Below are positions 15,605 to 23,431 of a stretch of 64,000 bases of DNA, one piece after another. The notes under the pieces are model-generated. The model saw nothing but the letters and a program-made list of their open reading frames with translations. It was not told where the DNA came from and ran no database searches. The stretch lies in the IMG/VR virus record IMGVR_UViG_3300042399_002267. One strand, given 5' to 3'. The DNA is from a virus. Each line of letters begins with the position of its first letter. Within the stretch, counting starts at the first letter, position 1. A program made the position numbers and the translations under genes.

Positions 15605-16651
15605 ATGCCAATAAACAATAACTTTTACGGTGTTTATAAATCACTTCAAATTGACAATAGAAAAGTTGTTGTCACAAGTGCCAAAAGAGACAGAGATATG
15701 GACGCTTCTGCTGTCAACTACATTCAAGGTACACCTAAAGCTCGTGTCATGAATATAGGTGGTGTTACTGAGACTATAACACTTGAGTCACCTGTTTTAG
15801 TTGGCGCAGGTTCTTCCGTTGATGGAAGATACCTTGCCAATAAAAAATTAGAAGAAATTCTCATTTCTGGCACTGGTGGGTCTTTGCCTTTATTATCAGG
15901 TGCGAGATTTAATATTTCTCAAGAAGGTGCATCAGTAAGTTTGACATTATTGTCTGACGGAAATCCATTCAACACAACAATATTTGACATTAGAAGTGAT
16001 GAAGTTCCAGAATTAGATCCAATAGCGTATGGTCCTTCTAGAGTTGGTAAATTTTATGACTTTAGAGTACAAATTGGTACAAGAAGTTATTTTATAACAT
16101 CAGCAAATATTTCTGTAGAAGTTGGCACAGACAAACAGTACTTCTTTGTTCCAGGTGGATGGGAAGATGGAAGAGGATATGGTCCTGCTGGTTCAGGCGT
16201 AACATTTGACAAAACATTCTCAAGTACTGGTAACTCTTATTATCCTGGCACTCAATTCCCATGGATTGGTGTTAATAGCATCAAAATTTCTGGTGGCGGA
16301 CAAGCTGCTGTTCTTTTGCAAAACCTCAACAAAGGTACAGGTCCTTATGGACAAGCAGCTGATGGGTCTGAAGACACTGACTTTTTAGATTCTGGTGAAG
16401 CTTACAACTTGTCTCTTGAACCAGGCACTACAGATATGACTTTGCAAAAACCTGGTATTGCTGTATCAGAAAATGCAAACTTTAGATTAGAGATTTACGA
16501 CCCTGCATACAAAACGGCAGGTGGATCAGGATGGACATCATTGCTACCATCATCAATTGATACAAGAGTATCATTAGTTCATACTTCTAACTTTTCACTA
16601 AATACTGGACTCTTGACTGTAGACTTTTCATTCCTATGTTGGGTTAAATAA
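15605..16651 (+). CDS. Tail-tube-like protein (paralog 2)
   Basis: YIQGTPKARVMNIGGVTETITLESPVL parallels paralog 1. Beta-rich, with a GAGGA RBS. Confidence 0.5.
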   Translation: MPINNNFYGVYKSLQIDNRKVVVTSAKRDRDMDASAVNYIQGTPKARVMNIGGVTETITLESPVLVGAGSSVDGRYLANKKLEEILISGTGGSLPLLSGARFNISQEGASVSLTLLSDGNPFNTTIFDIRSDEVPELDPIAYGPSRVGKFYDFRVQIGTRSYFITSANISVEVGTDKQYFFVPGGWEDGRGYGPAGSGVTFDKTFSSTGNSYYPGTQFPWIGVNSIKISGGGQAAVLLQNLNKGTGPYGQAADGSEDTDFLDSGEAYNLSLEPGTTDMTLQKPGIAVSENANFRLEIYDPAYKTAGGSGWTSLLPSSIDTRVSLVHTSNFSLNTGLLTVDFSFLCWVK

Positions 16652-17164
16652 TTAATCATCATCATCATCATCTTCAGTGAAATCAACGATATATTCCTCA
16701 TAATCCCAGTCGTCAGATTCATCCATGTCTGTCCATACATCTTTGATGGCATACATGGGTTTTTCTGTCACTAATGCTAAAATTAATCCATCACACAGAG
16801 ATGTTATAGCAAATGTTCTATTAAATGATTTATCTACTAATTTCAAAGAACAGTATATAACATCTCCAACTTTAGATTCTATAACAACAGATTCAACTTC
16901 TGATTTATATAATCTGAGATATTTCAAAAACAATTGGTGAATGGTTTGTATATGAGAATTTAAGTGTAATTCTTTGTATACGAAAGAAAGCATACTAGCT
17001 TCATAATTGTTTATTTCAAAAATATTTTTACGTTCACCATCTGTCATTACTACAAACGTTCTATGATCTTGTGTTGATGCTATGTGTTCAATATCAACTC
17101 TAATTAATTCAAGATCTTCAGACGGCTGAAGCTCAGATAAATCTAATTTTATTTTATTTTTCAT
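16652..17164 (-). CDS. DUF151 / bifunctional nuclease (BFN)-like protein
   Basis: EINNYEASML, TIHQLFLKYL, VESVVIESKVGDVIYCSLKL and CDGLILALVTEKPMY align by eye with the DUF151 pattern (IG.FEA.AI...RPLTHDL...VVI.....FYA.L...RPSDAIALA...PIY). Acidic C-terminal tail. Confidence 0.75.
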   Translation of the reverse strand: MKNKIKLDLSELQPSEDLELIRVDIEHIASTQDHRTFVVMTDGERKNIFEINNYEASMLSFVYKELHLNSHIQTIHQLFLKYLRLYKSEVESVVIESKVGDVIYCSLKLVDKSFNRTFAITSLCDGLILALVTEKPMYAIKDVWTDMDESDDWDYEEYIVDFTEDDDDDD

Positions 17165-17574
17165 TTTTCACAACCATGGATTTTACAAGTTTTACATGAA
17201 TGGCAAAGAGAATTATTGATCCAGTAAGATGTACTTATCAATATTCCACCGGATACAAGAATCAAAGTATAAATATCAAAGTGAAATTCATGTTCGTGAT
17301 TATAATGGTTATGTGCCATTTTTCCAATCACAAATAATGCAGTGCCTATTCCTAATAGACCTAAGGCTTTCAAAGATCTATGCTTCTTGTATCCAAAACA
17401 CAAATTTGACAAATTTAGAAACAAAGAAATTATTAGCAATGCCCATTCTACAGGCTCAGTAACAAATAATGAGATGCTTGCAATTGGAAAAACTATAACA
17501 AAAATTGGCATTACAGCACAATGAATTGCGCATGCTAATGTTGCATATGTACCCAATAAACCTAAATTTTTCAT
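17161..17574 (-). CDS. MerC-domain membrane protein (metal transport/binding)
   Basis: LGLLGTYATLACAIHCAVMP is the MerC-type CxxHC signature. Four hydrophobic segments, GYKKHR, a His-rich loop HNHYNHEHEFH and a C-terminal CHSCKTCKIHGC. Confidence 0.8.
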   Translation of the reverse strand: MKNLGLLGTYATLACAIHCAVMPIFVIVFPIASISLFVTEPVEWALLIISLFLNLSNLCFGYKKHRSLKALGLLGIGTALFVIGKMAHNHYNHEHEFHFDIYTLILVSGGILISTSYWINNSLCHSCKTCKIHGCEK

Positions 17575-19346
17575 TTTTGTATTAAAGACTTAGCATGATT
17601 ATGAACTTTGGTGCTCATATTGTCAACAACTTCTTTGCCAGATTCAACAAGAGAAGAAAGAAGCTCAATATTCTCCGAATGATAATCAGATTCAATACTT
17701 ATTCTCAAATCTTCAAGTTCCTTAATGTCATCTGATTTTAAAACTTTTGTATCTAAAAGTTCAAGCAACTGAATCTTCAATGATGTAAGCCAATCTCTAA
17801 GCAATGATAATTGCTTAAATCTTTCATCAGAAATTTTATTTTCTTCAGCATCTTGTAACATTCTGGTCATATCTTCATTAGATAACGAACCTGATAATAC
17901 CATAACTTTTTCATTTTTAGATTGTTCATCAACAGCTTTGACTGTTACTATTCCATCAGCATCCACTTCAAAAACAACATCTATTTTAGGAATAGATCTT
18001 CTCATTGAGGGGATATTTTCAAGCTTAAACTCTCCAAGATAATGATTGTGTTTCGTCTGAGGTCTCTCTCCTTGAAAAACCTTTACATCTACAGATGTTT
18101 GATTATCTTCAGCAGTGGTGAATATTTCCTCAAACTTAGTAGGCACTTGAGAATTTCTTTTAATCATAACATTCATAACTCCACCTTGAGTTTCAATTCC
18201 TAATGAAAGTGGGGTTACATCTAAAAGAAAAATATTTTTATCTGATTTTCCAGATAGAACAGATGCTTGAATAGCAGCACCCAAGGAAACAGCCTCATCT
18301 GGATTGATTGATTTATTTGGTTTCTTGCCAGTCCATTCTTGAACTTTTTTAAAAACATATGGAATTCTAGTTGATCCACCAACAAACACAACTTCATTAA
18401 TTTCGCTAAATGAAAGATCTGCATCTAAGATTGCTTGCATAATACAATCTTTTGTTTTATTCAAAGGTATTTCAAGACTATTTTCAAATTCTTCTTTGGT
18501 TATTACTACAGATAGATTGACGGGCTGTCTGTTTCTAAATGCAAAATTGGAAATATTTACAGTGATTTTTTCTAACTGAGACAAGGTTTTTTTTGCTTTT
18601 TCTGCTGCAGTCAATAATCTTGCTAATTGACTTTCATCTAACATTTCTAATGAATGCTGGTTATAATTGTAATCATATTGAGAATTAAACTTATTCAGGA
18701 TTAATTTAGCTAATGATTTGTCAAAATCTGCTCCACCTAAATTAGTGTTTCCAGAAGTTGAAAGAACATGAAAATCGCAACCATCAGAAAGATTGAGAAT
18801 AGTAACATCAAATGTACCACCACCGAGATCGTACACCAGTATCTTAGACTCATTTTTCTTATCCAGACCGTACGCCAATGCTGCAGCAGTTGGTTCATTG
18901 ATAATCCTTAAAACTTTCAATCCAGCCAATTCACCTGCTGTTTTGGTAGCAACCCTTTGGTCGTTATTAAAATATGCTGGAACAGTAATAACAGCTTCAG
19001 TGATGTTATCACCTAAATAATCTTCAGCATCTCTTTTTAATTTCTTTAAAATTTCAGAAGATATCTCGATTGGAGACATTAAAATAGATTCATCAAAAAC
19101 ATATGTTTTATCAAAACCTTTTGACATTTGTCTCTTTACTAATCTAACTATATTTTTTGCATTGGTAGTTTCATATTCAACTGCTAACGAGCCAACTAAA
19201 TTGTTTCCTGACTCATCAATAGCAAAAACCGAAGGAGTAATTCTGTCACCCTCGCAATTAGGAATGACTTCTGCTACGCCTTCGGCATTTACATGTGAAA
19301 TAACACTGAAAGTACTTCCTAGATCTATGCCTACACTTAAACCCAT
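17571..19346 (-). CDS. dnaK: Hsp70/DnaK chaperone
   Basis: GIDLGSTFS, AVITVPAYFN, RIINEPTAAALAYG, VYDLGGGTFDV, VGGSTRIP, linker LLDVTPLSLGIET and EDNQTSV..VFQGER. 591 aa with a short C-terminus. Confidence 0.95.
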   Translation of the reverse strand: MGLSVGIDLGSTFSVISHVNAEGVAEVIPNCEGDRITPSVFAIDESGNNLVGSLAVEYETTNAKNIVRLVKRQMSKGFDKTYVFDESILMSPIEISSEILKKLKRDAEDYLGDNITEAVITVPAYFNNDQRVATKTAGELAGLKVLRIINEPTAAALAYGLDKKNESKILVYDLGGGTFDVTILNLSDGCDFHVLSTSGNTNLGGADFDKSLAKLILNKFNSQYDYNYNQHSLEMLDESQLARLLTAAEKAKKTLSQLEKITVNISNFAFRNRQPVNLSVVITKEEFENSLEIPLNKTKDCIMQAILDADLSFSEINEVVFVGGSTRIPYVFKKVQEWTGKKPNKSINPDEAVSLGAAIQASVLSGKSDKNIFLLDVTPLSLGIETQGGVMNVMIKRNSQVPTKFEEIFTTAEDNQTSVDVKVFQGERPQTKHNHYLGEFKLENIPSMRRSIPKIDVVFEVDADGIVTVKAVDEQSKNEKVMVLSGSLSNEDMTRMLQDAEENKISDERFKQLSLLRDWLTSLKIQLLELLDTKVLKSDDIKELEDLRISIESDYHSENIELLSSLVESGKEVVDNMSTKVHNHAKSLIQK

Positions 19347-19368: not shown

Positions 19369-19725
19369 CTATTTTTCTGAGTCATCCTCATTAAAAACTG
19401 ATCCATTTGGCTTTAGACCTTCGTAAAGATTTTTCAATGAATCTTTAGAATCAAGTTTTTTTCTAAAAGAAATCATTTCAGTTTTAGTGATAGGAGTATT
19501 TGTAGATGCACTATTATCCTTCGGTAATGAATTTTTGTAATCATTGACCATAGAGTATGTTTGTCTAACTGCAAAAGTATCTTTACACTTAGGGCATCTC
19601 ATGATTGAATACACTTCCAATTCATTGTTTGGAAGCCACCCTAAATGAGAGTCACGGGTGAAGTGAGTTTTGCAGTTTCGATTAAGACAGTGTTTGGGCT
19701 TTCCCACTATAGTCTGATGGAACAT
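19369..19725 (-). CDS. Putative Zn-finger protein
   Basis: CLNRNC and CPKC pairs, with a GGAGGT RBS. Confidence 0.6.
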   Translation of the reverse strand: MFHQTIVGKPKHCLNRNCKTHFTRDSHLGWLPNNELEVYSIMRCPKCKDTFAVRQTYSMVNDYKNSLPKDNSASTNTPITKTEMISFRKKLDSKDSLKNLYEGLKPNGSVFNEDDSEK

Positions 19726-19833: not shown

Positions 19834-19870
19834 ACACCACTGATGGTATTAGTCAGTGGTGTATTTTTAT
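19834..19870 (+). promoter_or_regulatory. Leader hairpin plus T-rich tract downstream of TATAAT (attenuator-like)
   Basis: TATAAT at 19821-19826, then ACACCACTGA-9 nt-TCAGTGGTGT (perfect 10-bp stem), then ATTTTTAT. Confidence 0.55.
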
Positions 19871-19884
19871 GCCAGGAGGATATT

Positions 19885-19956
19885 ATGAGATTACTAAAAG
19901 ATATCGAAGATTTGTTCACTCATGTTCTTTTTACTTTAATTAAGAACGAATATTAG
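19885..19956 (+). CDS. Unannotated 23-aa small protein MRLLKDIEDLFTHVLFTLIKNEY
   Basis: Strong AGGAGG RBS just upstream of the ATG, an upstream -10 and a downstream hairpin. Below the ORF-track size cutoff. Confidence 0.5.
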   Translation: MRLLKDIEDLFTHVLFTLIKNEY

Positions 19957-19963
19957 AATAAAT

Positions 19964-19990
19964 ATAAACTGCAACGGCGCAGTTTATTTT
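19964..19990. terminator. Likely bidirectional terminator between the small ORF and the helicase
   Basis: ATAAACTGC-aacggc-GCAGTTTAT is a 9-bp stem with A/T-rich flanks overlapping the helicase stop. Confidence 0.65.
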
Positions 19991-22223: not shown

Positions 22224-22448
22224 TTAGCAATCCTTTGCTATAGTTTCATCATCATCATCTGAATCATTGATATCTAAGGTGATATCTCTTGTAGTATCTA
22301 CATCAATAGCATCTTTAATTTTTGCTTCAGCCCAAACTAGATTTGCATCTTCTGGCTGTTGATCTACAGATGCTGTTACATTAACTTCATCCCCATCTGC
22401 ATCTGTAAACTTTTCAATTTTGCCTGTCGCTCTCTTAATCATACTCAT
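22224..22448 (-). CDS. Small acidic hypothetical protein
   Basis: 74 aa, Asp-rich, tightly packed between dnaJ and the membrane protein gene. Confidence 0.65.
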
Positions 22449-23431
22449 AATAAGTTTTTCTCCTCTCTTGATTTTACATATTCTTTCAATGTGTTCAATT
22501 CCAACTCACTTATATTTTCAGGGATTTTATACAAGAATTGCAAGTATAAATCAGCATTGCTAGTTTCATTTACAGGCAATCCCTTTCCTGAAACTTTGTG
22601 TTTTTGACCATGAGCTATATTTGATTTTAATTTAAATTTTATATTACTTCCATCGATGTGATTAAATGTAAAATTAAATCCAACTATTGCTGCTACTGGA
22701 TCAATATTTTTTATGTATGTTAAATCACCATTATTATCTATTTTATAGTTATCAACGTCTTTTAAACCTATGTTTAATAATAAATGACCTGGTGGCTGAT
22801 TAGGATCTATTTGACTACCACGCTCATTGAGAACAATTGTTTTAAGGACTTGTCCCTTTTTAATTAAAACTTCAAACATTTCTTGCTTGTCAATATTTCC
22901 ATTGCAATTACATTTTTCACAATTTTGTTTAAATGTTTTTCCTCTTCCTAAACAATTACCACATGGTCCAAAATTATGCTCAAAGAAAAAAGGTCCCTGT
23001 TGAATTGTTTGTTTATTTTGCCCTGATCCCATACAGATCATACAAACTTCTACTCCTAATCCACCATGCCCATTACATTTATCACAGTAAACTTTTCTTG
23101 TATACGCTATATTTTTAATACAATCATTGAAAGCTTCTTTTAATGATAAACCTACATCAAGATACATTGGCACATTTGAATTTTGTTGCCTGAAATTAAA
23201 ACCCCTAAACATTTCAAAGGGGTCAAATGGTTGCTGATATTGTGGCTGTGGTTCAGGCTTAGGATTTAAAATATCTTCATATGCCTGACTTAATTCTTTG
23301 AACTTTTCTTCGGCTCCAGATTCTTTATTTACATCTGGATGATATTTTTTTGCTAATTTTCTATAAGCTGATTTGCAGTCATCTAAAGAAGAGTTATATG
23401 GAACACCTAAAACGTCATAAGGATTTGGCAT
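22445..23431 (-). CDS. dnaJ: Type I DnaJ (Hsp40) co-chaperone
   Basis: J-domain with HPD, a short Q/F linker, four CxxCxGxG-like repeats and a C-terminal substrate-binding domain (GKGLP...DLY). Confidence 0.93.

Follow-up and report, generated by a model that had tools for sequence, protein, structure and literature searches.

The MerC proteins of mercury-resistance systems have four membrane spans, and true merC is confined to the mer operons of Beta- and Gammaproteobacteria (PMC3466566). Proteins with a DUF151 (BFN) domain have been assigned conflicting activities: MBP-AtBBD1/2 degrade DNA and RNA in vitro (PMC7249048), whereas Mycobacterium tuberculosis Cor, which consists of the DUF151 domain alone, shows no DNase or RNase activity, and its authors suggest that the plant nuclease activity may not come from DUF151 (PMC3870250). 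In addition, plant UVR-DUF151 proteins were found trapped on the ClpC1 chaperone (PMC8889267). Here, we examine a viral locus in which relatives of both families follow an Hsp70 gene, namely positions 16,652 to 19,346 of a 64,000-nucleotide (nt) stretch of DNA (IMG/VR record IMGVR_UViG_3300042399_002267), the whole of which we call the window. A preliminary description of this DNA had proposed that the three genes form a translationally coupled stress or metal-homeostasis module. Our analysis favors another explanation, to which we give a probability of about 0.6 as a whole: the trio comprises neighbors by descent and compact packing, rather than a dedicated Hsp70-transporter-nuclease machine, and makes up the 3' portion of a unit of four genes (zinc ribbon, dnaK, MerC-like, and BFN-like) in an uncultured family of jumbo phages. 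The most interesting element of the locus is the accessory MerC-like gene, whose ancestry, as judged from homologs, points to zinc-starvation operons. The trio and its junctions, identified from open reading frames (ORFs) as well as profile and fold matches, are as follows.

17571..19346, minus strand: dnaK, encoding an Hsp70 chaperone of 591 aa (ORF and PF00012)
17161..17574, minus strand: gene for a MerC-family membrane protein of 137 aa (ORF and PF03203)
16652..17164, minus strand: gene for a divergent DUF151/BFN-fold protein of 170 aa (ORF and fold match)
17571..17574, minus strand: ATGA stop/start overlap of dnaK and the MerC-like gene (read directly)
17161..17164, minus strand: ATGA stop/start overlap of the MerC-like and BFN-like genes (read directly)

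Gene order in relatives was evaluated in 14 MerC-bearing related loci (13 IMG/VR loci and one JGI contig). All 14 showed the order DnaJ, p144, UvsW, zinc ribbon, DnaK, RNase HII (where present), MerC-like, and BFN-like, with the block converging on two tube-like genes. The preliminary description was therefore right in expecting the linkage to be conserved in related phages; however, because collinearity extends over the entire block, the fact that the trio stays together says nothing specific about a functional module. Moreover, RNase HII separates dnaK from the MerC-like gene in 5 of the 14 loci, whereas the MerC-like and BFN-like genes are adjacent wherever the former occurs, including in a relative with only 34% BFN identity. 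More distant relatives (BFN-like proteins 23–27% identical; GC content of 38–58%) carry HSP70, sometimes a J-like gene, RNase HII, and the BFN-like gene, and a profile search of their loci found no MerC-like gene. In one of these distant relatives, HSP70 and RNase HII are separated by an additional gene, for a 178-aa protein that faintly matches the J domain (L103:5840-6376).

In a DnaK tree, the MerC-bearing loci share one side of a branch (Shimodaira-Hasegawa-like approximate likelihood ratio test, SH-aLRT, 84), and L097 and L098, both of which carry RNase HII, are grouped with the window (98); such carriers are scattered among non-carriers. Since the window sits beside RNase HII carriers on this tree, its dnaK/MerC junction appears to be secondary. 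RNase HII was also not found in a 316-kb window-type relative that is 88% complete. The distribution of the MerC-like gene is consistent with an accessory gene that was gained a single time. On the simplest history, the ancestral order would have been DnaK-RNase HII-BFN, to which one sub-lineage added the MerC-like gene once; RNase HII would then have been lost repeatedly, including in the window's lineage, giving rise to the present dnaK/MerC junction. As a separate observation on this block, the UvsW-type helicase of an RNase HII-bearing relative (L004:1-3060, L101:532-3519) is ∼1027 aa long and contains an intein-like insert (weak PF14890), and the window helicase (570 aa) aligns to it in two separated pieces.

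Both ATGA overlaps, on which the proposal of translational coupling had been based, were read exactly at the coordinates listed above. They are nevertheless ordinary packing for this genome. Among ∼29 co-directional junctions in the window (ORFs of ≥100 aa), 4-nt overlaps occur at three, 1-nt overlaps at four, and an 11-nt overlap at one, while a further five leave gaps of ≤3 nt, so that ∼45% of the junctions are tight. Furthermore, an ATGA overlap closes dnaK in most relatives, also where RNase HII comes next, and the overlap of the MerC-like and BFN-like genes is present in the related loci L001 and L002, but absent in L003 and L004. The features that frame the trio on its upstream side are the following.

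19369..19725, minus strand: gene for a Cys4 zinc-ribbon-like protein of 118 aa (ORF), probably the first gene of the trio's transcription unit
19964..19987, readable on both strands: terminator-like hairpin just after the UvsW-type helicase gene
22445..23431, minus strand: gene for a type I DnaJ co-chaperone of 328 aa (PF00226, PF01556, and PF00684)

The terminator-like hairpin has stems of 9–10 bp and T-rich tails on both strands, and is likely the upstream boundary of the trio-bearing unit. Because it follows the helicase gene, the unit probably starts at the zinc-ribbon gene. The 258-bp gap between the helicase and zinc-ribbon genes contains, at 19834-19987, two strong hairpins with T-tracts. 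At the other end of the unit, the convergent tube-like gene ends at 16651 and the BFN-like gene at 16652, leaving zero intergenic bases, and no terminator-like site was seen between the two (window 16649-16654). A scan for sigma-70-type promoters returned 22 sites, as compared with 19.7 in shuffled sequence, and we claim none.

The MerC-like protein scored 56.7 bits on PF03203, well above the gathering score of 27.6, in agreement with the family assignment of the preliminary description. The sequence features noted there were likewise seen in the 137-aa protein, namely (i) a CAIHC motif at residues 15-19, (ii) a His-rich loop at residues 86-98, and (iii) a Cys/His-rich C-terminal tail. An AlphaFold2 (AF2) model of the protein (predicted local distance difference test, pLDDT, 82) is a four-helix bundle comprising helices 2-37, 40-65, 69-92, and 101-126, with CAIHC in helix 1 and the His-rich loop between helices 3 and 4. 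An alignment of 26 phage and cellular members shows no variation at C15, H18, C19, P23, P30, E43, G61, H65, or N120 and almost none in the C-terminal Cys cluster. Basic residues characterize the helix 2–3 loop (KKHRSLK) and the C-terminal tail, whereas the remaining two loops are acidic or His-rich, which suggests that both termini are cytoplasmic, that the His-rich loop lies outside, and that the CxxHC site and the Cys tail face the cytoplasm.

A profile search with the MerC-like family returned >240 clusters at 90% identity, the best 120 of which are mostly 106–195 aa in length; among the matches listed, all but one homolog carry PF03203, and many reside on contigs of 150–420 kb. Comparison of the model with the PDB in Foldseek gave no match at E ≤ 0.001, and profile searches of the PDB with the BFN and MerC alignments returned nothing meaningful. 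A tblastn search of 50,697 GenBank phage records with the MerC-like and BFN-like proteins found no match, and PHROGs has no family for either. In the phage block, where the neighbors are dnaK, the BFN-like gene, the zinc ribbon, the helicase, and the tube genes, we saw none of the mer genes merA, merR, and merP. The gene is thus outside the gene context that defines a mercury-resistance MerC.

In bacteria, the combination of a Fur-family repressor, a zinc-independent ribosomal paralog, COG0523 GTPases, and a Znu-type ABC transporter marks a response to zinc starvation. To place the phage protein among its cellular relatives, one genome per prokaryotic species was scanned, returning 490 relatives, the best of which are from Abditibacteriota and Armatimonadota (36–38% identity), followed by Lysobacterales and Chitinophagaceae. 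Neighboring ORFs of the cellular genes were analyzed by unbiased clustering in 76 loci and by tblastn in 81 loci. A Fur-family regulator was the commonest neighbor (47 of 76 loci by clustering and 51 of 81 by tblastn, within ∼3–4 kb), and SCO1/SenC was the second (32 of 76 and 36 of 81, respectively); COG0523 CobW was found near 9 of the 81 loci and L33 paralogs near 5. An operon in an Abditibacterium metagenome-assembled genome (L010:1108-7433) comprises genes for Fur, L33, CobW, CobW, the MerC-like protein, ABC-2, an ABC ATPase, and an ABC-3 permease, and a metagenomic relative (L006:5256-6588) has the order FUR, L33, MerC-like. In Chitinophagaceae, the MerC-like gene is divergent from a SCO1/SenC-Fur pair (e.g., L086 and L087). 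Because of their Fur, L33, CobW, and ABC neighbors, the closest cellular homologs read as members of Zur-type zinc-starvation operons. This "MerC domain" branch beside Fur/Zur regulators appears to be uncharacterized in bacteria. In two reviews of COG0523 and metallostasis, no role for MerC-like proteins in zinc uptake was seen, and literature searches on MerC with Zur, COG0523, or phage auxiliary genes brought up no description of phage MerC-like genes or of Zur-regulon MerC-like proteins.

The suggestion in the preliminary description that the module might supply zinc gains independent support from the nearest cellular homologs, whose genes lie in Zur-type operons; the phage gene itself is not in such an operon. 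No Fur gene was found in three large phage relatives (316, 261, and 379 kb). One of these, a 378,848-bp genome that is 100% complete by CheckV (G005), encodes a COG0523 GTPase of 362 aa with CobW and CobW_C domains (L112:8148-9233), far from the dnaK block and among phage-type genes (amidase, PcfJ-like, and exoribonuclease-like); no COG0523 gene was found in the other two (316 and 261 kb). A zinc-supply role of the phage MerC-like protein is, on this comparative evidence, plausible, although we would put it at somewhat below even odds. In such a role, Zn(II) or another thiophilic cation would most likely be captured at the outer His-rich loop and passed, via the Cys/His site of helix 1, to the Cys tail in the cytoplasm, which would raise the metal supply in the infected cell. 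The broader proposal, that a widespread jumbo-phage family has a host-derived zinc-starvation gene (for a MerC-like inner-membrane protein of Zn(II) uptake or hand-off) and, in at least one member, also a COG0523 metallochaperone, and re-provisions zinc in the infected cell for its many Zn-dependent proteins, is put forward only tentatively. An Abditibacteriota origin of the phage gene was considered and rejected, since the MerC tree (100 rows and 140 columns) is too poorly resolved.

The BFN-like protein scored 23.9 bits on PF02577 (BFN_dom; E = 3.8e-5), which is below the gathering score of 27, so that the DUF151 assignment of the preliminary description is borderline by Pfam score, whereas a fold match and a reciprocal profile search uphold it. 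Many homologs at ∼58% identity carry a precomputed PF02577 annotation. An alignment-based AF2 model (pLDDT 86) matched TM0160 (1vjl/1sj5) in Foldseek with E = 1.7e-10, a root-mean-square deviation of 1.5 Å over 135 columns, and a TM-score of 0.83–0.86 (normalized to the target length). Moreover, a profile of the BFN-like family (25 members), searched against 1.84 billion representative proteins, matched only 83 clusters (50% identity), and the weakest of these matches are canonical BFN_dom proteins, which score 124–132 bits on PF02577 and some of which contain a UVR motif. Its predicted fold and its profile matches thus place the BFN-like protein within the DUF151 superfamily, as a genuine, though divergent, member.

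In the alignment of the phage family, the canonical RPxTHDL motif is replaced by HIQTI(H/Y/P/F)QL. Of the catalytic triad proposed for TM0160, given as Thr57, His58, and Asp115 where it is cited in PMC7249048, the phage family keeps only the Asp (D125), the His position being occupied by H, Y, P, or F and the Thr position by Ile. Unlike canonical members, the phage proteins bear a conserved acidic-aromatic motif at the C-terminus and a poly-acidic tail, which is poly-Asp in the protein of the window. Because the literature on DUF151 activity conflicts, the nuclease label is weak for these proteins, and it appears doubtful here; the nuclease label for DUF151 is contested in the literature (PMC3870250), and the name "bifunctional nuclease" should be used with caution for DUF151 proteins. 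On the favored reading, the BFN-like gene belongs to the core of the phage family and stands last in the operon, where it ancestrally came after RNase HII. Its product may be a dimer with a nucleic-acid-related or regulatory role, and not a proven nuclease.

The phage DnaK matched PF00012 with 552.5 bits (cut-off of 20.6; E = 1.3e-165) over profile positions 2-596 of 599 and is, therefore, full-length, and its nucleotide-binding and substrate-binding motifs are unchanged in nine clade members. It is 40–46% identical to DnaK-like genes in records of the phage collection, several of them apparently bacterial DNA. The dnaJ gene, which resides 3 kb upstream of dnaK on the same strand and is kept in related loci, likely encodes the partner of the phage DnaK, and together the two would constitute the phage's own Hsp70 system. 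GrpE (PF01025) was not found in the three large relatives (316, 261, and 379 kb, one of them 100% complete), whereas the same search was positive in 13 of 14 control genomes. Because GrpE was not found in these relatives, nucleotide exchange for the phage DnaK is presumably left to a host factor, or else to a non-homologous one. In each of the 14 related loci with a MerC-like gene, the gene immediately preceding dnaK encodes the zinc-ribbon protein (51–70% identity), which no Pfam family matches above cut-off. A role as a Hep1/Zim17-type Hsp70 escort was considered for it and dropped, as there is no zf-DNL match in Pfam.

The gene content of the window includes GyrB, GyrA, the UvsW-type helicase, a tail-tube-like gene, S1, S26, and S8 proteases, and the type I DnaJ, and suggests that the window belongs to a very large phage genome. 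Related contigs span 260–380 kb. Four consecutive giant ORFs, of 2717, 1718, 1000, and 1319 aa, occupy 25653-45933; the first three have no Pfam match, and the 1319-aa ORF has only a faint match to a PHROGs "virion structural protein".

Other explanations of the locus must be set against the reading of neighbors by descent. If the three proteins formed one stress or metal-homeostasis module, with stoichiometry set by translational coupling (for example, with DnaK assisting the membrane protein or metallate clients, and the DUF151 protein acting as a metal-dependent nuclease), the ATGA overlaps at both junctions, the recurrence of the dnaK...MerC-BFN order in 14 related loci, and the constant MerC/BFN adjacency would be expected. 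These same features are, however, accounted for by a flanking block, including the helicase and tube genes, that is equally conserved, and by the tight junctions that are usual in the window. The insertion of RNase HII between dnaK and the MerC-like gene in five loci, the lack of the MerC-like gene in distant relatives that keep DnaK and BFN, and the finding of no BFN homolog near 76 cellular MerC-like genes further argue against such a module, which we regard as quite improbable. It is similarly improbable that the substrate of the MerC-like protein is a toxic thiophilic metal (Hg, Cd, or Cu), as for classical MerC, or that the protein serves in copper or redox trafficking, rather than in zinc supply. 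Its PF03203 membership, its Cys-rich ligand set, and the SCO1/SenC neighbor in 36 of 81 cellular loci would fit this function; in contrast, the phage block lacks merA, merR, and merP, merC of mer operons is restricted to two proteobacterial classes (PMC3466566), and the closest cellular relatives occur with L33 paralogs, COG0523 GTPases, and an ABC-3 permease, as in zinc starvation.

Two further alternatives concern the BFN-like protein. That it is a true DNase/RNase, which processes primers or RNA-DNA hybrids together with RNase HII or degrades host nucleic acid, is unlikely, although the fold and the family Asp are retained, the gene adjoins RNase HII in distant relatives (RNase HII being also in the block of five MerC-bearing loci), and AtBBD1/2 cut both nucleic acids in vitro. 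The inactivity of Cor (PMC3870250), the variable residue at the catalytic-His position together with Ile at the Thr position, and the loss of RNase HII from the window's lineage, which yet kept BFN, all point the other way. The protein could also be a DnaK-linked adaptor, escort, or GrpE substitute, rather than a nucleic-acid enzyme, given that DnaK and BFN share one operon in all relatives examined, whatever intervenes, that no GrpE was found in the three large relatives, that plant UVR-DUF151 proteins were trapped on ClpC1 (PMC8889267), and that the acidic-aromatic C-terminal motif is missing from canonical BFN proteins. Yet the plant interaction may depend on the UVR domain, of which the phage protein has none; in distant relatives, the gene immediately before BFN is most commonly RNase HII instead of dnaK; descent collinearity accounts for the linkage; and Foldseek showed no resemblance to any known exchange factor. 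We consider this last alternative very unlikely.

The reading of neighbors by descent, with a MerC-like gene of zinc-starvation ancestry, has points of its own that weigh against it. DnaK and the BFN-like protein stay in one operon across deep divergence, so that a functional tie between those two is possible. The zinc assignment rests on neighborhoods of cellular homologs that are only 36–38% identical to the phage protein, and SCO1/SenC beside the Chitinophagaceae gene points to copper or redox chemistry, not zinc; the MerC tree, moreover, names no donor lineage. The membrane topology of the MerC-like protein is derived solely from its charge distribution, by the positive-inside rule. Finally, the phage relatives are metagenomic fragments, so that the absence of GrpE or RNase HII may hold only for these records.

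If the MerC-like protein moves zinc, giant phages would manipulate trace-metal supply, which would extend auxiliary metabolic genes beyond phosphate, carbon, and sulfur; in the literature searched, we found no phage description of a metal-acquisition auxiliary function of this kind. It would also provide a first, testable function for a broad group of bacterial MerC-family proteins that are encoded in Fur/Zur-type operons and now bear a name taken from mercury resistance. The locus further cautions that, in a phage family whose genomes are collinear, neither overlapping start and stop codons nor a conserved gene order should be read as evidence for a functional module.

In comparison with known systems, the phage DnaK resembles the Hsp70/DnaJ genes of huge phages (Lak phages and the 480–735 kb "uncultured phage" records LR7565xx) in being full-length and phage-encoded, whereas the DnaKs of the LR7565xx records are only 40–43% identical to it and these records have no MerC-like or BFN-like homologs. 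With DUF151/BFN proteins (TM0160/1vjl, Cor/Rv1829, and plant BBD/UVR-DUF151), the phage protein shares the fold, the conserved Asp and Glu, and a size near that of Cor, but it is only 17–18% identical, falls under the Pfam cut-off, has the motif replaced, contains no UVR, and bears an extra C-terminal motif and tail. The MerC-like protein shares with Tn21-type MerC (PF03203) the family match, four membrane helices, a Cys-containing metal site in the first of these, and cysteine in the C-terminal tail; it differs in lacking a mer operon context, in its helix-1 CxxHC, and in the His-rich loop between helices 3 and 4, and its nearest relatives, unlike Tn21-type MerC, are uncharacterized "MerC domain" proteins adjoining Fur-family regulators. 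Lastly, although the phage gene sits in a chaperone/replication block without a Fur/Zur gene, unlike the Zur-regulon operons, it is these operons that house its closest cellular homologs, and one related phage possesses, as they do, a COG0523 gene.

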